Virus record (IMG/VR): IMGVR_UViG_3300024999_000002
Strand: one strand, 5' to 3'
DNA: 64,000 bases
Source of the DNA: a virus
In this document: piece by piece, positions 4,683 to 30,293 of the stretch
Layout of the letters: the number at the start of each line of letters is the position of its first letter
Numbering within the stretch: the first letter of the stretch is position 1
Made by a program: the position numbers and the translations under genes
Notes under the pieces: generated by a model
Database searches by the model: none
What the model was told of the DNA's origin: nothing
Seen by the model: only the letters and a program-made list of their open reading frames with translations

Positions 4683-5390
4683 ATGGAGTTAAGAATTATA
4701 GCAGAATTTAGTCAAGATCCTTTATGGCTTGAAGTATTCAAAAGAGGTGGAGATTTGCACTCCGAATTATGTGCAGCTACCTTTAAAATACCATTGAGTG
4801 ATGTTAAAACACCTTTCCCACCTAAGCCAAGTTTTACATACAGAGATGTACAGAAGACGGTCGACTTTGGGTTAGCCTTCGGAATGTCAGAATTTAAATT
4901 ATCTGATACAATACAAGTTCCGGTAGATAAAGCCAAACAGATCATCAAAGACTTCTTTAAAATTGTTCCAAAAGTGGAACAGTTCTTAAATAAGTTAGGT
5001 GAATTAGGTAAGGCAAGAGGTTTTATAGCCACTCCAGAACCTATGAAAAGAATTCGTTGGTTTCAACAATGGGAACATGCAGTAGAAACTAAAGATTTTA
5101 GAGTAATGGGGGAAATTGAAAGACAATCAAAAAATTTCCCAATACAATCAACGAACGCTAATATTACTAAGCTGGCCATGTGCAACTTACAATACCTCAT
5201 TGATAAAGATAATTTACCTGTACAAATTGTAATGCAGGTATATGATGAACTTCAATGTATTGTTAAAGAAGAATTTGCAGAAGAATGGAAAGTAATCTTA
5301 GAACAAGAGATGATTAAAGCAGCACAAATAATAATAAAAACAATCCCAGTAGAGGTAGATTGCAAAATTTCCTCGCATTGGCAAAAATAA
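4683..5390 (+). CDS. Family A DNA polymerase, exon 2 (second half of motif A, motifs B and C)
   Basis: MELRIIAEFSQD; RDVQKTVDFGLAFGMS (motif B); QVYDELQ (motif C). Confidence 0.85.
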   Translation: MELRIIAEFSQDPLWLEVFKRGGDLHSELCAATFKIPLSDVKTPFPPKPSFTYRDVQKTVDFGLAFGMSEFKLSDTIQVPVDKAKQIIKDFFKIVPKVEQFLNKLGELGKARGFIATPEPMKRIRWFQQWEHAVETKDFRVMGEIERQSKNFPIQSTNANITKLAMCNLQYLIDKDNLPVQIVMQVYDELQCIVKEEFAEEWKVILEQEMIKAAQIIIKTIPVEVDCKISSHWQK

Positions 5391-5397
5391 TAAACAC

Positions 5398-5772
5398 ATG
5401 GAAGAAACTTTTATAAAACCAGAAACAGCAAAACTTGCTAAGTTAAAAGGATTTGACTGGCCTGTACATCATTATTATCAAGGTGAACATGCAGAAGTTC
5501 AAATATGTGTTCCTGTTTATAATAGGAATCATTTTAAAAACCTTTATTCAGCGCCAACACAAAGTTTATTACAGAAGTGGATAAGAGAAAAGCATGGTAT
5601 AAATGTATTAGTATATACCGATGATACCTTATCTTTCTTTTGGCAAATTCAATCAGCACATCCAGCAGCAAGTTACTTAGGTAATACCTTATATAGCAAT
5701 AATGTTTGGTGTGGTAATTATGAAGATTGTCTTGAAGATGGGTTATTAACAATACTTAAACTCATACCATAA
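5398..5772 (+). CDS. Hypothetical protein, member 1 of a tandem paralog pair
   Basis: Shares ETAKLAKLKGF and SLLQKWIREKH with the next ORF. Confidence 0.6.
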   Translation: MEETFIKPETAKLAKLKGFDWPVHHYYQGEHAEVQICVPVYNRNHFKNLYSAPTQSLLQKWIREKHGINVLVYTDDTLSFFWQIQSAHPAASYLGNTLYSNNVWCGNYEDCLEDGLLTILKLIP

Positions 5773-6161
5773 TGGAAGACACACTAATATCATTTGAAAC
5801 AGCTAAATCAGCTAAAGAAAAAGGATTTACAGAAGGAGACCATAAAACAATTTATACAGAACTTGGAAATATAATGTATGATGAAGATGGTTATTCTCCA
5901 GAAGTTTATTTATTAGCTCCAAGTCAGAACTTACTTCAAAAATGGTTAAGAGAAGTTCATAAATACCACATAACAATAAATATCAAGTATGATCACTCTA
6001 CTGAAAGTGTCTCTGGATTTATTATTAAAATATTCAACTTAAATCAACAATTCCCTTATATTTGGTATTGTGACTTACATTTATTAGAAGATGGATTATA
6101 TCAAACTTATGAAGAAGCCTTAGAAGTTGGATTACAAGAAGCGCTTAAATTAATTAAATAA
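5772..6161 (+). CDS. Hypothetical protein, member 2 of a tandem paralog pair
   Basis: ETAKSAKEKGF, NLLQKWLREVH and C-terminal EDGL...LKLI align with 5398-5772. Confidence 0.6.
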   Translation: MEDTLISFETAKSAKEKGFTEGDHKTIYTELGNIMYDEDGYSPEVYLLAPSQNLLQKWLREVHKYHITINIKYDHSTESVSGFIIKIFNLNQQFPYIWYCDLHLLEDGLYQTYEEALEVGLQEALKLIK

Positions 6162-6460
6162 TGACAAACTACAAACACGAAACAAAAGGAGTTATAATCT
6201 CAGCTAGGGATTATGATAAGCTACCTTACAGTGAAAAGAGAAAATATTTTACTACCTACCGTGAACCTACACATAAGTTTAGTGATGGTGAAGAAAGTGG
6301 AATAGATCTTTTAGACATTGTTACAGGAGTAGCGGTAATATCAAGTTTATTTGATAATGACTCTAGTTCTTCTTTCGACAGTTCATCAGATTCTTCATCA
6401 CCATTTGATGGTGGAGGTGGAGGTGACTTTGGAGGTGGAGGAGCAGGAGGAGATTGGTAA
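6161..6460 (+). CDS. Small protein with a Ser/Gly-rich C-terminal tail ending in W
   Basis: Tail is SSSSFDSSSDSSSPFDGGGGGDFGGGGAGGDW. Confidence 0.5.
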   Translation: MTNYKHETKGVIISARDYDKLPYSEKRKYFTTYREPTHKFSDGEESGIDLLDIVTGVAVISSLFDNDSSSSFDSSSDSSSPFDGGGGGDFGGGGAGGDW

Positions 6461-6464
6461 AAAC

Positions 6465-6929
6465 ATGGAAGAAGCTATAAGATATTTAGCGACTCTAAAA
6501 ATTAATCAATGGCATAACATTAATGATTCTCCTGCTAAAATCAGGGACAATGTATGGGAAGCTATTGAACAAGGTTTACTAGATGGCTATAGATTCATGA
6601 TGCATGAGTCTATAGACTATTTAGTAATGAAGACCCGGAATGCAGAGGATGCAGACCTAAAGATGACTCTAGCACAGATTGAACGAGACTATCAAAGTAT
6701 TGATTGGTTATGGTGCAAATTTGCAGAAGAAGGACACATAATGGAGATTACAGGAGGATCAGATCCAAATGCTTCACAAAGAAGTACGATTAAGTCAACC
6801 AGTGATCCTATATTTAAAGAATTAGTAGGCAAATCCTTAATAGATGTTGAAGTACTTAACTTCTTATATAGGAATTGCAAGACAATTAAAATAGTTTACA
6901 CAAGAAAAGAAGATGAGCCAAAACTTTAA
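6465..6929 (+). CDS. Hypothetical protein (start moved to the internal ATG)
   Basis: ATG 6465 follows the stop of the previous gene. The upstream 38 codons of the tracked ORF overlap 6161-6460 out of frame. Confidence 0.5.
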   Translation: MEEAIRYLATLKINQWHNINDSPAKIRDNVWEAIEQGLLDGYRFMMHESIDYLVMKTRNAEDADLKMTLAQIERDYQSIDWLWCKFAEEGHIMEITGGSDPNASQRSTIKSTSDPIFKELVGKSLIDVEVLNFLYRNCKTIKIVYTRKEDEPKL

Positions 6930-8052
6930 ATCAAAGCAAGAAATCCAAGATTATGGAGTTGAAGTGGCTAATTCAAACCAGAATGTTTTATTTGAATGGG
7001 CCACTGGACTAGGAAAATCTTTAGCAGCAATTAGAGTAATGGAGGCTTATGGTGGACGATGGAATATTGTCATTGCTGAAACTAACCATGAATCTAATTG
7101 GAGAGAACAGTTTAAGGAGCATGGTAAAGAACATCTTTTAACTAATGTAAACTTCTTCTGTTATCAATCCATGAGTAAGTATATTGAGAATGCTAATTTC
7201 ATCTTTGATGAGGGGCATCATATACTTAGTGAACTTAGGTTGTCACATCTCACTGATATAGTAACATGTCAAGTAGGTAAGAGAAATGTATTTCTATCTG
7301 CCACAATGACATGGTTTCAAAAGAGCGTTATCACTTCAATCATTCCGAATTTAGTGGTATTTAAAGTTACTTTGTCACAAGCTATAAAATGGGGATTATT
7401 ACCTAAACCTAGTGTGTACTTGATACCTGTACAACTGGATGATACAATAAAAAATCAAGTATTTGAATACTCCAAGTCTAACCATGTTAGGTGTACTGAA
7501 GCAGGAGCATACAAATTAATTAGTAGCAGAGTAGAACTGTACAAACAGAAATACTATGATACTAGACAACACTGGGATAAAATACGTTGGCTTAGAGCAG
7601 GGGGAATTAGGAAACAATTCTTAGCAGATTGTAAAACTACTCATGCTAAAATTTTACTAGAGAAACTTCAAGACAAGAGACTTATTTGTTTTGCAGGATC
7701 TATACCACAAGCAGAAGAACTTAGTGGAGGTAATGCTATACATTCTAAAGTCCCTAAAAAACAAAGGGAGGTAATGATTGCTAATTTTAACAATGAAGAA
7801 TCACATAAATTATTTGTGGTTGATATGTTGAAAGAAGGCATGAACTTAAAGCATATTGAAGCCGGTATAAATGTTCAATTGGATAATGTTGAAAGATACT
7901 TCACGCAAACTCACGGGCGCGTACTTCGTTCTCAGTTCCCTGAGCAATATATCTTATACGTAGAAGATACCCAAGATGAAGTTTATATTACTACTGCACT
8001 TGAAAACTTTGATTTAACATACGTGAAAAAAATTAACTTAGACGAAATTTAA
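6913..8052 (+). CDS. Superfamily 2 (DEAD/DEAH or SNF2-like) helicase
   Basis: Walker A ATGLGKS, DEGHH box (IFDEGHH), SAT motif (LSATMT). Confidence 0.7.
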   Translation: MSQNFKSKQEIQDYGVEVANSNQNVLFEWATGLGKSLAAIRVMEAYGGRWNIVIAETNHESNWREQFKEHGKEHLLTNVNFFCYQSMSKYIENANFIFDEGHHILSELRLSHLTDIVTCQVGKRNVFLSATMTWFQKSVITSIIPNLVVFKVTLSQAIKWGLLPKPSVYLIPVQLDDTIKNQVFEYSKSNHVRCTEAGAYKLISSRVELYKQKYYDTRQHWDKIRWLRAGGIRKQFLADCKTTHAKILLEKLQDKRLICFAGSIPQAEELSGGNAIHSKVPKKQREVMIANFNNEESHKLFVVDMLKEGMNLKHIEAGINVQLDNVERYFTQTHGRVLRSQFPEQYILYVEDTQDEVYITTALENFDLTYVKKINLDEI

Positions 8053-8279
8053 TGACTTACACAAAAGTAAAACTAGCACAGTGTCCAAAACCAGTTGAGG
8101 TAGATGTATACTTCACTGAAACTGAAATAGAAATTCCTGTTGGGGAAAATGACACTATTCCGGACACAGCCATAGAGATTGACGAGATTAATTACGATGG
8201 AGATATTTTAACAATATTTGCATGGTATAAATACAGTGATTTAATTGATGAAATAGTCGGACATCTTAAAAAGAAATAG
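8052..8279 (+). CDS. Hypothetical acidic protein
   Basis: ATGA-type overlap with the upstream stop. Confidence 0.5.
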   Translation: MTYTKVKLAQCPKPVEVDVYFTETEIEIPVGENDTIPDTAIEIDEINYDGDILTIFAWYKYSDLIDEIVGHLKKK

Positions 8280-8280
8280 T

Positions 8281-8466
8281 ATGAGAAGTAAAAAATCAGC
8301 TAAAAAATCAAAACTATCAGCAAGTCTTTCAAAATATTCTGGAAAGACTCTTGCTAGATTAGTTGCTTTAAAAGATATAACTGCAGAAGGTTGGCATCAG
8401 GCCTTTCCTTATGAAAGAGATATCTTAGAATTAAATGCAGCAGATTTGGAATTGATTTATGATTAA
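8281..8466 (+). CDS. Hypothetical small basic protein
   Basis: 61-aa ORF in the array. Confidence 0.4.
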   Translation: MRSKKSAKKSKLSASLSKYSGKTLARLVALKDITAEGWHQAFPYERDILELNAADLELIYD

Positions 8467-8701
8467 AACTGCAATTAAACCGTCAATAAAAGCAATAACA
8501 AGACCATTACCTGATGTTTTAGGGAGTATTATTAAAGCCCTAGAGCAAGAAGGAGTTCAATACAATGGTTTAAGTGAACTTGCTAAAATTATCACTAACC
8601 GATTTAATGTAACTGTAACTGAAGATGATCTAATAAATTATTATCAGCCTAGGATATGTGAGATAGAAAGTGAGTTATTGTATAAATTATACGGATATTA
8701 A
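8459..8701 (+). CDS. Hypothetical protein
   Basis: 80-aa ORF overlapping its neighbour by 8 nt. Confidence 0.45.
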   Translation: MIKTAIKPSIKAITRPLPDVLGSIIKALEQEGVQYNGLSELAKIITNRFNVTVTEDDLINYYQPRICEIESELLYKLYGY

Positions 8702-11179: not shown

Positions 11180-11944
11180 ATGAATAAAGAGAATGTATTA
11201 GTTAAAATTTATGAATTAAGAGATCCTAGAGACTTAAAATGTAGCCCTAGATATATTGGAATTACAGTAAAAAAATTAGAATATAGACTAAGTTTACATT
11301 TAAATAAAAAAGGACTGCAAATAAAAACATATAAAAACAATTGGATAAAGTCTTTACTAGAAGAAAATATTAAACCGACTATACACTTGATTGAAGAAAT
11401 TCAAGGTTGGGAATACGCTTGTAAAGTTGAAAAATATTGGATTAAAGAATTCAAGAAACAAAATTATAAGCTTACCAACGGTACTCTAGGCGGTGAAGGT
11501 GGAGGAGGGTGTGGTAGAATATGGACAAAAGAAAGTAAAGAAAAAGCAAGTAAAACAAGAATAAAATTACTTTTAAATGGTAAGTTAACAATACATAGAA
11601 AACCACACTCTGAAGAAGCTAAAAGAAAAATGTCTGAAAGTCACAAAGGAAAAGTCTTTTCTGAAGAGTATAGAAAAAATATATCCATTGCTAAAAAAGG
11701 AACAGTATGCCAAGAAAATAAAAAATTACGACAAAAAGAAAATAGATCTGAACCAATGATTGTAAAATATGATAATGGAATTATAAAAGAATTTTCTAGT
11801 GGTGCAGATTGTCGTAAAAGCTTAAAAATAGCTGAAATTACTTATTATAAATGCCTAAAATCTAATGGTTATTTAAAAAAGAAAAAACTTACAATCTCTT
11901 TTAAAAATCCAAGAAAAAGAACTTCATTTAAGTTAAACGAATAA
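11180..11944 (+). CDS. Free-standing GIY-YIG homing endonuclease with NUMOD3-like repeats
   Basis: IYELRDP...RYIGIT (GIY-YIG); repeated HSEEAKRKMSESHKGK and SEEYRKNISIAKKG. Confidence 0.8.
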   Translation: MNKENVLVKIYELRDPRDLKCSPRYIGITVKKLEYRLSLHLNKKGLQIKTYKNNWIKSLLEENIKPTIHLIEEIQGWEYACKVEKYWIKEFKKQNYKLTNGTLGGEGGGGCGRIWTKESKEKASKTRIKLLLNGKLTIHRKPHSEEAKRKMSESHKGKVFSEEYRKNISIAKKGTVCQENKKLRQKENRSEPMIVKYDNGIIKEFSSGADCRKSLKIAEITYYKCLKSNGYLKKKKLTISFKNPRKRTSFKLNE

Positions 11945-13763: not shown

Positions 13764-14894
13764 ATGGAAGCACAGATCGTAGTGGGACTCGGTTTTGGGG
13801 ATGAAGGCAAAGGCAACTTTACTAGTTATCTTTGTAATGAACACAAAACTGAAAAACCTTTAGTTATAAGATTCTCAGGAGGCCAACAAGCAGGTCATAC
13901 TGTAATGTATAAAGGTAAAAAACATATATTTTCTAACTATGGTAGCGGCACTCTTCAAGGAGTAGCCACACATATTTCTGAACATTGTTCTTTCTATCTT
14001 AATACAATGGCTGTGGAGAGAGAGATATTAAAGAAAACTTTTAATATCAATCCCATCTTAAGTGTGCATCCTTTAGCTATGGTAACCACACCTTACGATG
14101 TAGCTTTTGGTAGACTTAGGGAACGTACTGTTAAACATGGTAGTTGTGGGTTAGGTATTGGTACTACTGCTGCTAGACATACTAATACAGGCTTTAAGTT
14201 ACATGCAATAGACATGGAACATAAAGGCATTTTCGGAGTAAAACTTGCTAATATTAAGGAGTATTACGCCGATAAAGCAGCACAAATGGGAACAATTGCT
14301 CTGGATGAGTACATGGCAGAGGTTGATCGTCTTGAACAAGATTACTTCGACCTTATAAACAAAGAACTCTTTACAATCAAGAATAATGATGAGGCCACTG
14401 ATAAGGCAGAGACTCTTATCTTCGAGGGATCACAGGGAATAATGTTGGACAAGGATCATGGGATATTTCCTAATGTTACTTATGCCAATACTACTTCTAA
14501 GAATGCAGTACAAATCTGTAAAGAATTAGAAGTTCCATTCTCAATTAACTATATCACAAGGTGTTATCAAACACGTCATGGGAATGGTTGGATGAGTAAT
14601 GAGAACCCTGTAATCCTAATGAATGATGAAGAGGAAATTAATAAAAGTAATTCTTGGCAGGGAGATTTCAGAACTGCAGAACTTGATTATGATCTTTTAA
14701 ACCTTGCAATTGGAATTGATTTCAGTTATTGTGGAGGTGTAGAAAATACTAATCTAGTAGTTACTTGTTTAGATCAAATTCCAGGGATAGAGTTTGAAGA
14801 ACATAAGATCATTTATGAAATAGATGAAATTTATGAATCTCACTCTCCCGAATCAACAAAGATCAAGGCTCTTGTAGGGTCATTAATGCGTTAA
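13764..14894 (+). CDS. Adenylosuccinate synthetase family enzyme (PurA/PurZ-like), short and divergent
   Basis: GFGDEGKG P-loop, GGQQAGHT, GLGIGTT, FEGSQG, TRHGNG. The GxxTGRRRR loop is replaced by SWQGDFRTAELD. Confidence 0.85.
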   Translation: MEAQIVVGLGFGDEGKGNFTSYLCNEHKTEKPLVIRFSGGQQAGHTVMYKGKKHIFSNYGSGTLQGVATHISEHCSFYLNTMAVEREILKKTFNINPILSVHPLAMVTTPYDVAFGRLRERTVKHGSCGLGIGTTAARHTNTGFKLHAIDMEHKGIFGVKLANIKEYYADKAAQMGTIALDEYMAEVDRLEQDYFDLINKELFTIKNNDEATDKAETLIFEGSQGIMLDKDHGIFPNVTYANTTSKNAVQICKELEVPFSINYITRCYQTRHGNGWMSNENPVILMNDEEEINKSNSWQGDFRTAELDYDLLNLAIGIDFSYCGGVENTNLVVTCLDQIPGIEFEEHKIIYEIDEIYESHSPESTKIKALVGSLMR

Positions 14895-16005: not shown

Positions 16006-16037
16006 CTTGTTTATGTTAGACTTATTAATTATATTTG
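16006..16037 (+). promoter_or_regulatory. Host-type promoter for the free-standing LAGLIDADG gene
   Basis: CTTG(16006-16009)-N20-TATATTTG(16030-16037), 14 nt before ATG 16052. Confidence 0.4.
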
Positions 16038-16051
16038 TAAAAATATTAATT

Positions 16052-16645
16052 ATGAGTTTAATAGGAAACATTGAAATTACCCAAGAACAGAAGGAAATTC
16101 TGTTTGGTACATTATTAGGAGACGGAAACCTAAGATATAATGATAGCGGTAAAAGTGTATTTGGCAGAATGAATCATTCTGCCTCACAAGAAGAATATAT
16201 AAAATATAAACAGAGTAATCTTGCAAATCTAACTAGTAATGTTAAGTCTTATAAGGCTAAAGCTGGATTAAAATATTATGATAGTTTATATTTTACATTT
16301 AAATCTAATATACAATTAAACTCTTTATATCATGTTTTTTATGATGTGAATGGTAAAAAACATATTCCGGACGACTTAAGTTTATTAACTCCACGAGCTA
16401 TGGCTTTTTGGTTTATGGATGATGGTACAGCTTCAAATCCTACTATAAAAATAGCAACTTGTTGTTTTTCTATGTCAGATTTACTTAGATTACAAACATT
16501 TCTATCTGAGCAATATGGTATAGATACAGTAATAACAGGAGAAAGAAAGTTGTACTTTAAAGCAAAAACTAAGAAAATTTTTAAAACGTTGGTAGACCCT
16601 TATATAATAGAGTCTATGCGTTATAAACTTAAATTTATTAAGTAA
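16052..16645 (+). CDS. Free-standing LAGLIDADG homing endonuclease
   Basis: LLGDGNL and FWFMDDGT motifs. I prefer ATG 16052 because the tracked TTG start at 16007 lies upstream of the -7 box. Confidence 0.8.
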   Translation: MSLIGNIEITQEQKEILFGTLLGDGNLRYNDSGKSVFGRMNHSASQEEYIKYKQSNLANLTSNVKSYKAKAGLKYYDSLYFTFKSNIQLNSLYHVFYDVNGKKHIPDDLSLLTPRAMAFWFMDDGTASNPTIKIATCCFSMSDLLRLQTFLSEQYGIDTVITGERKLYFKAKTKKIFKTLVDPYIIESMRYKLKFIK

Positions 16646-19885: not shown

Positions 19886-20464
19886 ATGAGAAAAATTAGT
19901 TTTAAACTGCTAACTCAAGCACAACTTTTAGTGCTAGAAACCAATGCAAGAACTCTAGGTGAGTTAAAAGCAGAGATCAGTAGAAATTCACAACTACGTG
20001 GTAAAATTGCTTTCGGTGAAGTTCAACTTATTGAAAGAGAGACCAAAGCAACATTTGGGGATATTGATGAGGCTATCCTACCTGCTACAGACTGTATCAT
20101 GTTTGTAGTTCCTAGGAAAACTAAATCAGGAGCAATTCTTACAGAATTAGCTGCTATGAGTTTTGTGGATTTAAAGGCGCATGCTGAAAAATTAATGGAC
20201 GAAGATGATGATCTTTGCTTTGATCTCGATGTTCCTGCTGCTGATCTTTATGATGCTCTTTTAGATCATTATGAGAGAAACCCAGAGGTTGCTGAAGAGA
20301 TTAAAGGTCTTGTAGAAGATCTAGTAAAAGTAACTGATATTATCAATATAGTTATTCCTAAGTTGGAGGCTTTAAATATTGAAGAAGTTACAGCTTTAAG
20401 AGTAACAACCAATGACCTTCAAAGGGAAATTGAAGCAGTATCAAGTACTGTAAGAAGATCCTAG
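19886..20464 (+). CDS. Protein with an N-terminal ubiquitin-like (beta-grasp-like) pattern and an acidic helical C-terminal extension
   Basis: Residues 1-82 align by eye with ubiquitin (VLETNARTLGELKAEIS vs TLEVEPSDTIENVKAKIQ; IMFVVPRKTKSG vs LHLVLRLRGG). Confidence 0.45.
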   Translation: MRKISFKLLTQAQLLVLETNARTLGELKAEISRNSQLRGKIAFGEVQLIERETKATFGDIDEAILPATDCIMFVVPRKTKSGAILTELAAMSFVDLKAHAEKLMDEDDDLCFDLDVPAADLYDALLDHYERNPEVAEEIKGLVEDLVKVTDIINIVIPKLEALNIEEVTALRVTTNDLQREIEAVSSTVRRS

Positions 20465-20474
20465 TAATAATAAA

Positions 20475-20497
20475 GGGTAGGGAAACCTACCCTTTTT
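20475..20497 (+). terminator. Rho-independent terminator
   Basis: GGGTAGG(20475-20481)/CCTACCC(20486-20492) followed by TTTTT. Confidence 0.75.
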
Positions 20498-20508
20498 AAC
20501 TTAAAAAT

Positions 20509-21723
20509 ATGATATATTATCCAGATTTTCTTAAGTTTAAAGAATCAGAATTACAAGCACACTTAGAAGAGCACAATAAATTTGTAGCTCCAGGTGGTCT
20601 TGTAGTCTACAATAATGAGATAGCTGAAATATATGGAAGAGCAAAGCCGTACTTGTTGATAAAAACTGAAAATAACAATATAATGCAGGTATATACTTCA
20701 GATGCCCCTTTGCTTACTATAGACAGGTTTAACCGGCTAAAACTTTATAGAAGAACAAGACAACTACGTGGAAATTATAAATTTATGTGTGCAGTCCTAA
20801 AAAGAATAGCACATCAAATTTATGGAGAAAATCGCGTAGATATTATACTAGAACCTGGCGCCAGAAGAATACAAATTATTATACACTATCCCGAAATTGA
20901 AATAACAAATAGTACAGGTACAAAACACATAATCAAAGATTTATATATACGACATCATTTTGTTAACACTGAGGCCATGGGTATACAATTAGCCGGACAA
21001 GCTGCTCTTAAGACTACCTACAGTAATGGAGAAATTCAAAGATCATATTTACATTCTCACATTTCTAATAATGGTCTAGGAAGTTGGAGTAATAGTTTCT
21101 GTTTTGGCTCTACTACATTTGCACAATTTATACAGAATGTTAGACAACGCGGAGAGATGAATCAAGCAGATATATATCAACTATTCTTTGGGATGGATGA
21201 GTATCTCAAGTGGGAAAGTATAGAAGGCACTCCTTATAACAGGTTGAATGATATTATGGAATTTACCAGTGAATCATATTCTGTTAGTTACAGTAATGAT
21301 TTAGCGGAGAAAGCCTATGCCCATGTTGTCCAAAATTTAGAAAACTTTGAGTACAGTATCACTATGCGTAATAATGAAGTACGTATTGAAATAACAACTT
21401 CATTAGAAAGTGCTTTAAGTAATTTCCTAGAAACTTCTGGGAGAAAAGATTTAATACTAAGAGTACATAATGGAAGTCCAGTAAGGGTAGTATCTGCCGG
21501 CAGATCAAATAGTAGATATAACAACACGAGATTAGACTTCACATTTAAAGGTGCAAGACAAGTCTTAAAAGTTGATTATGATCGTGGAAGTCCAGAAGCA
21601 ATAGAAAGGTTGCACCCTTTAAGAGTGTACCCACAATTCTATATTGCAGTAAAAGTAAAGTTAGAAAATAAATTTGAAACTTTCTTAAGTGAAAAACAAA
21701 AACAAACACAACAAGCACAATAA
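20509..21723 (+). CDS. Hypothetical 404-aa protein with an H-S-H...C motif (speculative E2-like)
   Basis: YLHSHISNNGLGSWSNSFCFG (H182, H184, C198) follows a beta-rich segment, reminiscent of the UBC HP(N/H)...C motif. Located between the Ubl-like and JAB genes. Confidence 0.35.
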   Translation: MIYYPDFLKFKESELQAHLEEHNKFVAPGGLVVYNNEIAEIYGRAKPYLLIKTENNNIMQVYTSDAPLLTIDRFNRLKLYRRTRQLRGNYKFMCAVLKRIAHQIYGENRVDIILEPGARRIQIIIHYPEIEITNSTGTKHIIKDLYIRHHFVNTEAMGIQLAGQAALKTTYSNGEIQRSYLHSHISNNGLGSWSNSFCFGSTTFAQFIQNVRQRGEMNQADIYQLFFGMDEYLKWESIEGTPYNRLNDIMEFTSESYSVSYSNDLAEKAYAHVVQNLENFEYSITMRNNEVRIEITTSLESALSNFLETSGRKDLILRVHNGSPVRVVSAGRSNSRYNNTRLDFTFKGARQVLKVDYDRGSPEAIERLHPLRVYPQFYIAVKVKLENKFETFLSEKQKQTQQAQ

Positions 21724-21724
21724 A

Positions 21725-22084
21725 ATGGGTAAACATAGCACACATGTGATAACACCCGCAAAACCATTTGTTAAGAAGGAACCAGTTCCTACAAAAACAT
21801 TAGGTAACGTAGGTAAAATTTTCATTTCTGAGGAATTGAAAAAACAAATTGACTTTCTACATAAGAAGATAGGAAGCATAGAGTGGTCGGGAGTTCTAAT
21901 TTATAAGCATACAGGTGGAGAAATTAAAGACCTTAAAGATCTTGAATTCCACGCAACTAATATGTTCTTAATGGACATTGGTACAGGAGCTTATACTGAA
22001 TTTAATTATAATGAGCAAATTGTAGCTATTTATGATGTAATACCAGAGGCAATGGAAAGTGCTACTGGACTAATTCACACGCAT
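21725..22084 (+). CDS. JAB/MPN (JAMM) metallopeptidase, exon 1
   Basis: Conserved Glu (IEWSGVLIY); ends ...GLIHTH, the HxH of the JAMM motif. ATG 21725 directly follows the upstream stop. Confidence 0.8.
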
Positions 22085-22355
22085 TAAAATGAATGGTGCA
22101 GCCTTAAAGTAATTTAAGGTAAAAAATATCGGATGAACTCAGGGAACGGAGATAAAGTGACCAATCCTGAGCCAAGCTAAAGATTAAATGTCTTTAGAAG
22201 GTGCAACGACTAGGTATTGAAACTAAATAATGGAAAGTTCTTCTAATGGAATAGGAAATGTCTCCCAGAAAGGAGCAGAATATAGGTTTGAGTCCTATAC
22301 TTTCTACTAGATTATTTAGAATATAATATACCCACGAGCGTCCGACATCCTATCA

Positions 22356-23147
22356 CTAGGATGATGATATAGTCTGAACTTTAGGATACTTTAAAATAAG
22401 TTTTTCAATTCCTTGATTAAACTTATTAATTTTTCTTGTTAACTTAAAAGGAGAGTTATTATAAATTAAATAGAATTTATATACTTCTTCTTTCTTAGCA
22501 AAACTTAATATCCACGTTTTGTTAAAAAATAATGAATAATTTTGTAAATTTAGAGAATCGGCAATACCCTTTAATAACTCTTCAGTACCTCTGATAGATA
22601 CTCGAATAGTTGTTATATTAGGATTGTTGCTTACATGAATACAGCCATCTCCATCTAAATAACCTGATATAAAACTTCCATGAAATTCATTTGGGATATT
22701 TAATAAGATATTAGTTAGAGTTTTGGATTTTCTTTGTGTAATTCCTAAATTTAATAAATCATTTACTAGTAATGGATTAGATAATGTAAATCTAACCATT
22801 TCATTATTAGGAAATGTAAGAACTTTTTCACAACCAATTTCTTGTCTAAGCAATTCTAAAACTTCTGTATCAACTCTATTTATTTGAATACCTAGAGTAA
22901 CAGAGGAAGAATTGGAACGTACAATATAACCATCTGCAGCAATAAATCCTAGTAAGTAGGCCTTTGTAGCAGAATCTATATTCTGAAAATATCGTATATT
23001 ACCTTGATTAGACCTATAATATATGGAATATTTTTGCAATATGTAGGTTACGGACGAGTATTTTATATTAAGTTCTTTAGAAATTTGAATGGGAGTTTTA
23101 CCATTCTCTGCTAGAGATTTAATTAAATTATGGTCATGAATTTGCAT
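22356..23147 (-). CDS. Double-motif LAGLIDADG homing endonuclease with N-terminal HTH, antisense to its host gene
   Basis: YLLGFIAADGYI and FISGYLDGDGCI. Same architecture and length (263 vs 262 aa) as the 3773-4561 ORF. Confidence 0.85.
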   Translation of the reverse strand: MQIHDHNLIKSLAENGKTPIQISKELNIKYSSVTYILQKYSIYYRSNQGNIRYFQNIDSATKAYLLGFIAADGYIVRSNSSSVTLGIQINRVDTEVLELLRQEIGCEKVLTFPNNEMVRFTLSNPLLVNDLLNLGITQRKSKTLTNILLNIPNEFHGSFISGYLDGDGCIHVSNNPNITTIRVSIRGTEELLKGIADSLNLQNYSLFFNKTWILSFAKKEEVYKFYLIYNNSPFKLTRKINKFNQGIEKLILKYPKVQTISSS

Positions 23148-23163
23148 ACAAAATTATTTTTAA

Positions 23164-23195
23164 CAAATATAAGAAAAATTTTATTCTAAAGCAAG
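23164..23195 (-). promoter_or_regulatory. Host-type promoter for the antisense intron ORF
   Basis: On the minus strand: CTTG-N20-TATATTTG, 16 nt before ATG (23147). Confidence 0.45.
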
Positions 23196-23224
23196 AATTT
23201 TAAAATATTCTTGATAACAAAAAG

Positions 23225-24088
23225 CATTCAATGGGGGCATTCCACAGTGGAACAGACTTAAGTGAATTAGAAGATAATGCCGGAGTATATAATTACTATG
23301 TATCTCTAGTTGTTAATTTTAAAGAAACTTATGTTTGTAAAATTGCTTTCCCTGCTACAGTAATCATTAATGAAACTAAACATAATGTAAGTACAATAAG
23401 AAACACCGATGGTACAATCATTCCATTTGAAGAAAAATCAGAAAAGAATGAGGAAAGAGTAATACATTATCTAGGAGATTTAGATGTAGTAATTGAATCT
23501 ACTCCTATAGAAATTTCAGAGTGGATAGAAGATAGGTATGCCGAAGTTAAGAAAGCAAAAGAAAAACCTGTATATGTACCATACACATCTTACTACGATA
23601 CTTTTAAAGCTGATAGAAGTGTTATAGGATTTAGAAAGGAGGAAGGGGGTGCAAAACTACCTATACCTACTTACAGACAACAAGCGTTAGGAGGGGACTT
23701 TCAAAGAGAGGACAGCGTCCTTGAATTTGAAGAGTACACCGCCGCGTCCTTCACGACTGCTAGAGAAGTTAGCAGAGATCCGAGCAAAACTATCAAATTA
23801 TTTGTAAATGCCGTAGTCTTTTCAGATTCTACTGTACCTTTAGATATTATTAAAGGGGTAGTAAATTTGAATCTACTGCCTGATGCAGAATTCCAATTAT
23901 ACTTAGACTTATTAGAGGCTAATATAGAAATTCTACATGACAATATTTATGGGCTAGGTAATGTTCATCTACTAAGACACTTAAAAGAAGTGGTAGTACA
24001 TCTAAGCGCTTATAAAAATGCCAAGAGAGTAGGACACATTGATAAACTAATTGAATTCTTAGACGATTATGGAACTCCAGCAACTTAA
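23225..24088 (+). CDS. JAB/MPN metallopeptidase, exon 2 plus a long C-terminal region of unknown function
   Basis: HSMGAFHSGTDLSELED completes the JAMM motif, in frame with exon 1. Confidence 0.8.
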   Translation, partial: HSMGAFHSGTDLSELEDNAGVYNYYVSLVVNFKETYVCKIAFPATVIINETKHNVSTIRNTDGTIIPFEEKSEKNEERVIHYLGDLDVVIESTPIEISEWIEDRYAEVKKAKEKPVYVPYTSYYDTFKADRSVIGFRKEEGGAKLPIPTYRQQALGGDFQREDSVLEFEEYTAASFTTAREVSRDPSKTIKLFVNAVVFSDSTVPLDIIKGVVNLNLLPDAEFQLYLDLLEANIEILHDNIYGLGNVHLLRHLKEVVVHLSAYKNAKRVGHIDKLIEFLDDYGTPAT

Positions 24089-24740
24089 TGACAGATTTAA
24101 AGATGCTCCTTGGTTTGAACAATGCAGCAAGGAGTTTATACTTGTAGGTGGAGTAGGTGGTATAGGCAGTTCAGCAATGTACTGTTTAACTAAGACTATT
24201 CCTTGTACCTATGCAATTATTGATATGGATACTGTGGCTGAATATAATGTAGGCACACAGTTCTTCTGCAAAGACGATGTTAATAAACTAAAGGTACAAG
24301 CAGTACAAGAGATGGCTACTAGATATTCTGCAGCCAAGATCATGCCTTTTCCAAGAGCAATAACAGACACTGATTTTAGGCCTATCACAATATCAGCCTT
24401 TGACAATATGGCTGCTAGAAAGCAGTTGTATGAAGCTTGGAAAAAGCAGGTAAATAGAGAGATTTTCATAGATGGACGCCTTAGGGCAACTATGTATGAA
24501 GTCTACATTGTATTACCAGGAAGAGAAGCACAGTACGAAGCCACACTATTTGACGATAAAGATGTGGCTGATGATGAGTGCACATTTAAACAAACATCCT
24601 TCTTTGCTATGGCAATTGGGGCGAAGATTACGCAGGCTCTAACTAATTACTTGTCTAACAAGTATACTAAGGAAGACTCGTGTGCTTTACCTTTTAAGAT
24701 AACAGAGGTAGGAGAATTATTTTACTTTAACGCAGAATAG
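24069..24740 (+). CDS. ThiF/MoeB/E1-like adenylyltransferase (minimal Rossmann domain)
   Basis: ILVGGVGGIGSS, IIDMDTVAEYNVGTQFF, SAFDNMAARKQL, IDGRL...VYIVLPG. Overlaps the JAB gene end by 20 nt. Confidence 0.8.
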   Translation: MELQQLNDRFKDAPWFEQCSKEFILVGGVGGIGSSAMYCLTKTIPCTYAIIDMDTVAEYNVGTQFFCKDDVNKLKVQAVQEMATRYSAAKIMPFPRAITDTDFRPITISAFDNMAARKQLYEAWKKQVNREIFIDGRLRATMYEVYIVLPGREAQYEATLFDDKDVADDECTFKQTSFFAMAIGAKITQALTNYLSNKYTKEDSCALPFKITEVGELFYFNAE

Positions 24741-24741
24741 T

Positions 24742-25824
24742 ATGGCTTTTAGTATTACAAGAAATGTAAATGCAATGCCCGTAATTTTTGATGGAAATTC
24801 TGCACCTAGAATAGAACTTACTCCCAGTGCCCCATACAGATGGGGCTCTGTGAAGTCAGTCTTTGATGCTATGTGTCTTACTAATACCCCACAACGAGAT
24901 CATGGGCTACATATTTATCATGGATTAACTCTTGATCATAGAGGTAATCCTTTAGTAGTAGTATGTAGAATGTGTGATGGGTCATTAAAGGCTTTTATAA
25001 GTTCAGAGTATGTAGCAAGCAATAAGACCCGCTTAGATTACATTAAACATGGAATCTATAAAATGGGTGTTAAAAGAGGGTGTTGGGAAGAGAAAACTCA
25101 AGTTGAGTTAATGGCAATGTTTACTACTTCGCTGGCGATCACTATGGAAGACTTACTTCCAGAAGGACAGAAAGCAATCAGTAAAGCATTTCTAATGGCT
25201 GAAACAGAGCTTTTGAAACCTAAGTCAGTAGTTATTTTACCAGTGGCTGATCCTACAGATGTATCTAATCTAAGAATTATAAGATTAGAAAATTGTGATG
25301 GGAATAAGTTACGGGCTATAAAATGTTACAAGGACCTTACAGGAATGGGATTAAGGGAGGCTAAAGATATTATTGATAGTGCCCCGGTGAATTTATTTAC
25401 TGGAATTTCAATAGATGCCGCCAGAGAAATCCAAAGATCTTTTGAGGAAGCAGAGGTATTCGTAGCTATAATGGCTATGCCTACACCTCCAAAAGTTATG
25501 GGTATAAAACCAAAGATTACACAGACACAAGCACAATCAGGATGGGGAGAATTCTTCAAAGACCTTGACAGTGTTAATGTACCAACAGTACCTGTTGAAC
25601 CTAGTGTTGTTGAAGCTTTAACTGCAAACAATTCAATTACTTGGAGTGCTGGAGCGATGACAACAGGAGCAGGTATATCTTTAGGTGATGTGACCGCAAC
25701 AGTAGCAAGTCTAAGGACACCGCAAGAATCATCTCGTAATCAGCGCCCACAGTCTAGTAATCTAAGTGAAGAAGAACGAATTCTTCAAGATCAACTAGAT
25801 GCTGAAATTCAAAACATGATTTAA
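24742..25824 (+). CDS. Protein containing a ribosomal L7/L12 C-terminal-like domain (residues about 176-244)
   Basis: NKLRAIKCYKDLTGMGLREAKDIIDSAPVNLFTGISIDAAREIQRSFEEAEVFV vs E. coli bL12 [54 protein letters not shown]. Confidence 0.7.
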   Translation: MAFSITRNVNAMPVIFDGNSAPRIELTPSAPYRWGSVKSVFDAMCLTNTPQRDHGLHIYHGLTLDHRGNPLVVVCRMCDGSLKAFISSEYVASNKTRLDYIKHGIYKMGVKRGCWEEKTQVELMAMFTTSLAITMEDLLPEGQKAISKAFLMAETELLKPKSVVILPVADPTDVSNLRIIRLENCDGNKLRAIKCYKDLTGMGLREAKDIIDSAPVNLFTGISIDAAREIQRSFEEAEVFVAIMAMPTPPKVMGIKPKITQTQAQSGWGEFFKDLDSVNVPTVPVEPSVVEALTANNSITWSAGAMTTGAGISLGDVTATVASLRTPQESSRNQRPQSSNLSEEERILQDQLDAEIQNMI

Positions 25825-29748: not shown

Positions 29749-30293
29749 GACCTGATACAGATATAAATAAAATATGGTTTACTGCCGATCTTCACCTGCT
29801 TCACCCTAAAATCGTGACTATCTGTGGACGTCCTGTATCTGTTGAAGAACACGATCAATGGATTATAAACAGGATTAATGAAAAAGTAGCTAAAGAACAT
29901 CAGCTGTACATATTAGGAGATGTAAGCATGGGAAGTAAGACAAAGACAGAACTATTACTTTCTCAAATTAAATGTAAGAACAAGTATCTGATACTAGGAA
30001 ATCATGATGGCAATTTAGAAAATTCCAAAATGTTTGTCAATATATCACAAATTAAGGACTTTACATTTAGCTCTGCATCATATCCTAATATACATATTGT
30101 GTTATGTCATTATCCTATAGCAAGTTTTAATAGGAAAGTACACGGTTCATGGCACTTATATGGACATACTCATGCCAGATTTGACAATAAAGGTCTAAGT
30201 TTTGATGTTGGAGTAGATGCTCAGAATTACTATCCTATTTCTTTAGAGGAAGTAATGGATAAAATGACTAAATTAAGTTTAACAATGTTTTAA
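29745..30293 (+). CDS. Metallophosphoesterase (second copy, different subfamily)
   Basis: FTADLHLLH, ILGDVSMG, LGNHDGN, CHYP, GHTH. GTG start overlaps the upstream TGA. Confidence 0.7.
   Translation: MRPDTDINKIWFTADLHLLHPKIVTICGRPVSVEEHDQWIINRINEKVAKEHQLYILGDVSMGSKTKTELLLSQIKCKNKYLILGNHDGNLENSKMFVNISQIKDFTFSSASYPNIHIVLCHYPIASFNRKVHGSWHLYGHTHARFDNKGLSFDVGVDAQNYYPISLEEVMDKMTKLSLTMF

Follow-up and report, generated by a model that had tools for sequence, protein, structure and literature searches.

Four consecutive genes on the plus strand of a 64,000-nt stretch of virus DNA (IMG/VR record IMGVR_UViG_3300024999_000002; the whole stretch is called the window below) encode a precursor with a ubiquitin-like (Ubl) domain (P1), an orphan protein (P2), a JAB/JAMM peptidase and a minimal E1-like adenylating enzyme (Table 1). 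A preliminary description of this DNA had taken the set for a phage-encoded Ubl conjugation module, and the four genes, the intron interrupting the JAB gene, the overlap of the JAB and E1 genes by 20 nt (24069–24088) and the motifs quoted there were all found in their places. These motifs are KSG at residues 80–82 of P1, HSH...C at residues 182–184 and 198 of P2, and GGVGGIGS, NVGTQ and FDNMAARK in the E1-like protein. In our estimation the balance tips slightly in favour of the cassette being a phage-encoded module for Ubl processing and activation, kept as one conserved unit by crAss-like phages, among them Steigviridae such as crAss001, phages resembling FpV4 and many relatives from the environment.

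Table 1. Features of the cassette and their positions in the window
Feature	Position	Strand	Remarks
P1, ubiquitin-like precursor	19886–20464	+	192 aa; open reading frame (ORF)
P1 beta-grasp domain, residues 1–82	19886–20131	+	ends K-T-K-S-G82
Terminator-like stem-loop	20472–20495	+	in the 44-nt P1–P2 gap; 10-bp stem, GAAA loop, T5
P2, orphan protein in the "E2 position"	20509–21723	+	404 aa; ORF
JAB/JAMM peptidase, exon 1	21725–22084	+	catalytic Glu (EWSG); ends H-T-H
Group I intron	22085–23224	+	Rfam RF00028; boundaries deduced from sequence and homolog alignment
LAGLIDADG homing endonuclease ORF, 263 aa	22356–23147	−	Pfam; inside the intron
JAB/JAMM peptidase, exon 2	23225–24088	+	starts H-S-M-G-A-F-H-S-G-T-D
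Minimal E1-like adenylating enzyme	24069–24740	+	223 aa, one Rossmann-type domain; Pfam ThiF

Relatives of the cassette were collected with the E1 family as bait. Eighty IMG/VR loci were sampled out of 390 encoding a relative of this protein, and six-frame ORFs of the related loci were searched with profiles of all four proteins. The order P1–P2–JAB–E1 on one strand was found in 78 of the 78 related loci with enough upstream DNA, their E1 proteins being approximately 30–55% identical to that of the window; the remaining four loci and short contigs of metagenome-assembled genomes (MAGs) end at contig edges and were left out of this count. Since order and strand are kept throughout, the four-gene arrangement is not accidental, and chance adjacency of unrelated genes is thereby ruled out. 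Linkage of the JAB and E1 genes, which the preliminary description had considered to be the mark of Ubl conjugation systems, is likewise retained in every informative locus. An E1 scan of 185,579 species genomes returned only eight loci, all of them MAG contigs, and each contig that reaches far enough has the complete cassette. As far as IMG/VR and this genome collection show, the module is phage-specific. On a contig from a MAG of Puia sp., Bacteroidota (DASYBV010000020.1, 373,651 bp), the cassette occupies positions 5175–8699 and is flanked by DnaB, RecT, primase, ExoVIII and PolA, that is by a phage replication module; such a contig may represent an integrated prophage of crAss-like type or a chimera of assembly or binning.

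Conservation of P1 is concentrated in its first ~82 residues, and residues 83–192 form a helical, acidic and poorly conserved tail. The AlphaFold2 model (pLDDT 84–90 over residues 1–70, with a low-confidence hinge at 79–84) has the β-β-α-β-β topology, and a Foldseek search of the PDB repeatedly retrieved ubiquitin (TM-score relative to the target 0.66–0.73, root-mean-square deviation 2.2–2.8 Å, ~82 columns, ~20% identity, probability 1.0). Gly82 is invariant in all 71 distinct P1 sequences, where it closes the motif K-[TIV]-K-[SA]-G; K80 is conserved in 67 of them. The tail past this glycine varies from 24 to 252 aa (median 139) and is absent in no relative. Because the model matches ubiquitin and the glycine is always followed by a tail, P1 is shown by the modelling as a ubiquitin-fold domain that ends in an invariant glycine and would be made with a C-terminal extension. 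The ubiquitin-like pattern noticed earlier in the first 82 residues is thus borne out as a predicted β-grasp, and Gly82 we infer to be the site of cleavage and activation. Sequence searches of Pfam, NCBIfam and PADLOC with P1 gave nothing meaningful, and PHROGs returned only families of unknown function. Just past the glycine, residues ~88–130 (window positions 20147–20275) and the same part of the homologs show a helix–extended–helix pattern with the consensus M-x-Y-x-x-L-R-x-L-G..., and weak matches to SAP domains were registered there in three homologs (0.052 twice and SAP_new25 at 4e-4 once). A DNA-binding motif may lie here, at the beginning of the tail.

The stem-loop that follows the Ubl gene has a minimum free energy of −16.3 kcal/mol. 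In the related loci 54 of the 55 distinct P1–P2 gaps fold with z < −2 relative to shuffled sequences (median −5.1), and 48 of the 55 contain a stem of 7 bp or more with a T-run behind it, the stem sequences being unrelated to each other. Such statistics point to conservation of a terminator or attenuator downstream of the Ubl gene. According to the simplest reading, the Ubl transcript ends at the hairpin or reads through it partly, which would provide more Ubl than enzymes.

The JAB gene starts with ATG at 21725 in the public gene call, with an alternative GTG at 21689. Its intron was recognized by Rfam RF00028 at positions 22096–22395 (63.6 bits with a cut-off of 50, E 2.1e-15). Exon 1 ends with ...CAC ACG CAT (H-T-H) at 22084, the 5' splice site being after U, and exon 2 starts with CAT TCA ATG (H-S-M) at 23225, the 3' splice site being after G. 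Joining of 21725–22084 to 23225–24088 gives ...GLIHTH/HSMGAFHSGTD, that is HxHx7Sx2D, so that the complete JAMM signature, expected from the start to appear upon intron removal, is restored. The predicted spliced product, GLIHTHHSMGAFHSGTD, has a perfect JAMM motif and aligns without gaps with uninterrupted homologs, for example GLIHTHHNMGAFFSGTD, so the junction is secure at the sequence level; splicing itself we infer from this agreement. The catalytic Glu, His, His, Ser and Asp are conserved in 72–75 of 75 JAB sequences. Prok-JAB of Pfam was matched by 15 of the 15 tested family members (best 4.5e-6), single scores falling just below the curated cut-off (19–21 bits for the window protein, cut-off 25). 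The best solved relatives found with the JAB profile in the PDB are JAMM1 (0.0026), CSN5, an Rpn11-like protein and AMSH, all of them Ubl isopeptidases. The C-terminal ~270 aa are poorly conserved and contain no recognisable domain.

The intron is inserted exactly within the HxH...S..D catalytic motif. Homing introns usually target strongly conserved sites, so that this position can be counted as a sign of selection on the JAB gene. Each of the 82 other loci has its JAB match within one ORF and no second fragment, and the intron therefore looks particular to the phage of the window. The ORF within it matches LAGLIDADG_3 (1.5e-8) and LAGLIDADG_1 (4.5e-7) of Pfam, both above cut-off. It is antisense to its host intron, and from the end of the Rfam core at 22395 there are ~830 nt to the 3' splice site, a segment that contains this ORF. 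A tRNA-like element was detected by a sensitive scan in an insertion of the intron core (22232–22306, plus strand; 31.4 bits with the Rfam tRNA cut-off at 29), and neither the default Rfam scan nor ARAGORN called it. Two free-standing genes of homing-endonuclease type lie upstream on the plus strand in the replication module, at ~11180–11944 (GIY-YIG/NUMOD3) and ~16013–16645 (LAGLIDADG_2); since they come in addition to the one in the intron, the genome appears rich in mobile endonucleases.

The fourth protein had been described as a minimal ThiF/E1-like adenylyltransferase, and the match of its single domain to Pfam ThiF is well above the threshold (46.5 bits, cut-off 28.1, 3.3e-12); PHROG 15670 was matched at 1.8e-39. 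In the PDB the best match of the family profile is UBA5 (2.8e-12), followed by MccB (7e-12), PaaA (6.7e-10) and Cap2 (1e-6); UBA2, UBA6, UBA3, ThiF and MoeB are further matches, those of ThiF and MoeB being approximately 1000-fold weaker than that of UBA5. Residues R9, G28xG30G31, D52, D54, N60, Q64, K75, D112, R117, R137 and C171 are invariant in 73 of 73 sequences, and N113 is present in 72. Thus the nucleotide-binding residues (GxGGxG, D52, D54, K75, D112, N113 and R117) are kept, with the exception of the arginine of NxxRQ. The threonine noted earlier at this point is indeed what the window protein has, and across the family the position is occupied by G (61), T (8), C (3) or S (1 of 73), never by R; it aligns to the arginine in NMNRL of UBA5. 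By analogy with UBA5, ThiF and BubCD the enzyme is probably a homodimer.

P2 belongs to a large family (3317 representative clusters at 50% identity, collected at E ≤ 1e-3). Residues N134, S183, H184, C198, G200, E236, S237, G240 and P242 are invariant in an alignment of 99 members, in which R168, Y180, W235 and E239 exceed 90%; in the IMG/VR set E239 falls to 43 of 72. The predicted structure (pLDDT 85.8) starts with a variable SH3/Tudor-like barrel, which is followed by a core of one helix and four long antiparallel strands with the loop Y180-x-x-S183-H184...C198-x-G200, and then by two helices, the loop W-E236-S237-x-E-G240-x-P242-Y and a C-terminal α/β domain. In the UBC fold a helix and four strands precede the HPN...Cys loop and further helices. 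The order of elements in P2 recalls this fold, the resemblance being one of topology only. The segment YLHSHISNNG...FC also locally resembles YHPNINSNGSIC of UbcH5. Matches in PHROGs are confined to families of unknown function, and those found by Foldseek in BFVD to uncharacterised crAss-like proteins. P2 is read here as an orphan component in the E2 position.

What such a set of proteins may do can be outlined by analogy with two bacterial systems, from which the steps of JAB cleavage and E1 adenylation are deduced. In Bil, with gene order Ubl–E2–JAB–E1, the JAB peptidase pre-processes the Ubl precursor at a conserved glycine (PMC10557695), and in Bub it cuts the precursor after a conserved glycine, which is then adenylated by E1 (PMC11601596). 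Similarly to BilC and BubC, the JAB peptidase of the cassette would cut P1 after Gly82 and free the Ubl C-terminus. The E1-like enzyme would then adenylate Gly82 with ATP, probably followed by a thioester at Cys171. From there Ubl may pass to Cys198 of P2 (or to its Ser183-His184), and P2, acting as an E2 or ligase with its own fold, might attach it to a phage or host target in the phase of replication. The JAB peptidase could reverse this attachment, and the hairpin would keep Ubl in excess of the enzymes.

A number of findings weigh against this scheme. Fusions linking P2 to Ubl, JAB or E1, as well as JAB–E1 fusions, are absent among 172 retrieved homologs, so that P2 is tied to its neighbours by synteny alone. 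With the full-length P2 model Foldseek found nothing in the PDB at E < 1e-3, and the sole E2 among the top 50 matches was UBE2O (E 0.05, probability 0.12, a meaningless alignment). Comparison by hhalign with UbcH5B gave a probability of 0.6%, and there were no matches in Pfam (99 members scanned), NCBIfam, PADLOC or a sequence profile search of the PDB. Consequently, the earlier suggestion that the 404-aa protein is E2-like is unsupported and has to be given up or toned down. As to the E1-like enzyme, its chemistry may differ, because the canonical NxxRQ arginine is missing family-wide; the profile of its C-terminal half matched nothing in the PDB, HMMER having aligned the N-terminal half only. 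In a manual and unconfirmed alignment Cys171 immediately precedes the helix after the crossover loop, presumably like C184 of ThiF, C187 of MoeB and C250 of UBA5. In addition, the cassette contains no E3 gene, and the structure models were built on shallow alignments of 15–19 sequences. That the scheme holds in full, up to conjugation with P2 acting as transferase, is in our opinion possible and rather doubtful. A shade more tentative is the farthest-reaching form of the scheme, in which P2 represents a non-UBC class of Ubl-conjugating enzymes (an E2 or E2/E3 analogue with a Ser-His...Cys centre) and crAss-like phages run their own complete pathway tagging replisome or host proteins during genome replication.

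Some of the same features can be brought together in another way, as a sulfur-carrier pathway of the ThiS/MoaD/CysO/QbsE type, although we regard this as unlikely. Ubl, adenylated by E1, would then carry a thiocarboxylate, P2, an enzyme-like protein with an invariant cysteine, would thiolate a nucleotide, DNA, tRNA or a cofactor, and the JAB peptidase would only trim the precursor. The E1-like protein is single-domain and of ThiF/MoeB size, its public label is ThiF and its best match in NCBIfam is ThiF PRK08644 (2.2e-10), but the scores of the ThiF/MoeB models are far under their cut-offs (40.6 versus 159), and its profile fits best to UBA5, with MccB, which is not a Ubl E1, nearly equal and ThiF and MoeB far behind. 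The setting among genes of nucleotide and DNA metabolism would suit such a function, yet no Pfam match to a rhodanese or cysteine desulfurase was recorded for the genes within ~10 kb on either side. Sulfur pathways do include trios of Ubl, E1 and JAB (Iyer et al. 2006, PMC1779556), but P1 ends its Ubl part with S-G or A-G, almost never with G-G, and ubiquitin or other Ubl domains account for nearly all of its best 50 Foldseek matches, with neither ThiS nor MoaD among them. Precursors of sulfur carriers have tails of 0–2 residues, far from the long tails of P1.

Improbable to a still greater extent is that the cassette mainly neutralises Bil, Bub or type II CBASS of the host, with the JAB peptidase stripping host Ubl or cGAS conjugates or with the phage Ubl and E1 serving as decoys. 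Host Ubl systems target phage proteins, and deubiquitinase domains of phages have been proposed as anti-defence factors (bioRxiv 10.1101/2023.09.04.556158). The gene order does mirror Bil, and the E1-like protein has weak PADLOC matches to Cap2-type E1–E2 (5.4e-6) and BilD (1.3e-3), but P1, P2 and the JAB protein show no PADLOC similarity to BilA–C or Cap3. A lone deconjugase would suffice for this purpose, yet every locus retains all four genes as a group, and they reside beside primase in the replication module, not among typical early anti-defence genes.

A similarly low probability is given to the assumption that Ubl is merely a removable N-terminal module and the tail of P1 the working part (possibly with a SAP/HeH-like DNA-binding motif and an acidic helix), which the JAB peptidase releases or activates, while E1 and P2 act elsewhere, for instance in C-terminal nucleotidylation like MccB or PaaA. 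The tails are always present and long, and a few P1 members have SAP matches just past the glycine, but these are below any reliable threshold, and it is the tail that is the least conserved part of P1, the Ubl domain with its terminal glycine being the most conserved. MccB and PaaA are matched by the E1 profile nearly as well as UBA5, and TAPI/TAPK of phage lambda combine Ubl and JAB without conjugation (PMC1779556); invariable linkage of the E1 gene to the Ubl gene argues against such separate functions.

Judging by protein similarity, the window is part of a crAss-like phage of ~103 kb. A P2 protein identical to that of the window is encoded on ~102.7-kb contigs from at least 14 assemblies. 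When the region was compared by megablast with 50,697 phage records, nothing matched, so there is no close DNA relative among these deposited phages. At the protein level the E1 search led to 74 phage records, which comprise phages of the FpV4 group of Flavobacterium psychrophilum and crAss-like phages of Bacteroides, including crAss001-type phages, Kolpuevirus, cr85_1, cr128_1 and cr106_1; taxonomy was checked for four of these, and they belong to Steigviridae. The listed hosts are Bacteroides intestinalis for crAss001-type phages, B. cellulosilyticus for Kolpuevirus and F. psychrophilum for FpV4.

In these genomes the cassette is usually situated a short way downstream of the primase gene. 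Around the cassette of the window, PHROGs and public gene calls assign DnaB, an AAA ATPase, primase, an endonuclease, a 5'-3' exonuclease, UDG and metallophosphatases. Because these neighbours are genes of DNA replication and metabolism, the cassette is assigned to the replication module of its crAss-like phage; the preliminary description had supposed the early/replication arm of a virulent phage. The public annotation names the JAB protein "contains metalloprotease domain" and the E1-like protein "thiamine biosynthesis protein ThiF", and lists both genes upstream of them as hypothetical. A promoter scan was uninformative, as the counts equalled the expectation from shuffled sequences.

Several features around the cassette deserve mention. 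Near position 30000 of the window the GC skew and the coding strand switch, plus-strand genes lying before and minus-strand genes after this point, as would fit a phage genome with two gene arms, divergent or convergent. Two bases past the E1 stop codon begins a plus-strand gene (24742–25824) for a 360-aa protein with the C-terminal domain of ribosomal protein L7/L12 (Pfam 1.8e-12, above cut-off; NCBIfam L12 2.3e-11), and no homolog of it was found at this position in the 82 related loci. Among the replication genes there is also a plus-strand gene (13764–14894) for a 376-aa protein resembling adenylosuccinate synthetase, whose public gene call carries Pfam PF00709 and whose translation contains a GDEGKG loop. 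An enzyme of PurA or PurZ type is possible, which would hint at an unusual purine or DNA-base metabolism.

Work on bacterial Ubl conjugation has until now dealt with it as anti-phage immunity of the host (Bil, Bub, type II CBASS), and here the machinery belongs to a phage. What is new is a phage-encoded Ubl/JAB/E1 module linked to the replication module and having an orphan component in the E2 position. If P2 does conjugate Ubl, tagging of this kind would be a viral weapon in bacteria and not host defence alone. The phage lineage that conserves the cassette is large and abundant, as more than 3000 representative P2 clusters illustrate; P2 is a candidate for a new class of enzymes at the E2 position, and it is accompanied by an E1 family without the canonical ATP-contacting arginine. 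Since the lineage includes isolates with named cultured hosts, a direct test by genetics, proteomics and biochemistry is possible. We found no description of the cassette in papers on crAss-like phages, jumbo phages, Bil and Bub, an absence that holds within the searchable literature and is not proof. Viruses of Asgard archaea are reported to have E1-like genes too, though not as part of a self-contained set (bioRxiv 10.1101/2021.07.29.454249).

Of the known systems, BilABCD has the same succession of Ubl, second protein, JAB and E1, as well as the Ubl fold with a C-terminal glycine, and there is no E3 gene in either. This arrangement, which had led the preliminary description to speak of a Bil-type operon, stands in all 78 loci, but kinship with Bil is not supported. 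The E1 of Bil is built as IAD-AAD-CYS, whereas that of the cassette is one domain of 223 aa; P2 has no UBC/CEHH similarity; the PADLOC models of BilA, BilB and BilC did not match the cassette, BilD giving only the weak match to E1 mentioned above. The precursor tails are also different, since only 2–9 aa are reported for BilA, and Bil is encoded by the host, while the cassette belongs to the replication module of a phage.

Type I Bub (6E/DUF6527; BubAB, BubCD and BubE) shares with the cassette a large Ubl precursor with a conserved glycine and a JAB peptidase (PMC11601596). In both cases JAB is paired with a minimal UBA5/ThiF-like E1, homodimeric in Bub and probably so here; the two are fused in BubCD and encoded by overlapping genes in the cassette. 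However, the piece past the glycine is an E2 in Bub and a helical tail in P1, P2 being a separate orphan. Bub uses Ser/Tyr oxyesters and has no catalytic cysteines, whereas Cys171 of E1 and Cys198 of P2 are invariant in the cassette, which argues against oxyester chemistry there. The genes of the cassette are separate, without fusions in the homologs retrieved, and no match to DUF6527 of Pfam was found.

The pairs ThiF/MoeB–ThiS/MoaD, CysO/Mec+ and QbsCDE resemble the cassette in the small single-domain E1, the β-grasp partner with a C-terminal glycine and the trimming JAB, but differ from it in the G-G terminus, in the NxxRQ arginine, which the cassette E1 lacks, and in the Ubl, which here resembles ubiquitin. 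TAPI (Ubl) and TAPK (JAB with NlpC/P60) of phages lambda and T1 also unite a phage Ubl with JAB, the Ubl having a conserved glycine and then a C-terminal domain (PMC1779556). They belong to the tail module and have no E1, whereas the cassette has E1 and the orphan protein in the replication context. TAPI/TAPK is the only phage precedent that we found for the Ubl and JAB pairing. Type II CBASS has the E1 adenylation domain and JAB in its Cap2 (E2–E1) and Cap3, and this is where the weak PADLOC match to E1–E2 belongs, but the cassette has a dedicated Ubl, no E2–E1 fusion, no CD-NTase and no PADLOC similarity to Cap3. As to PRTRC systems, PRTRC_ThiF scored 33.6 bits with a cut-off of 144.75, and no other PRTRC family of NCBIfam was matched. 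Membership in Bil, Bub, CBASS and PRTRC, as well as classical ThiF/MoeB equivalogs, was rejected on these grounds. Thus, in its probable mode of action the cassette is most like Bil, by gene order, JAB pre-processing and the lack of E3, and most like type I Bub, by the large precursor and the pair of JAB and minimal E1, being a member of neither.

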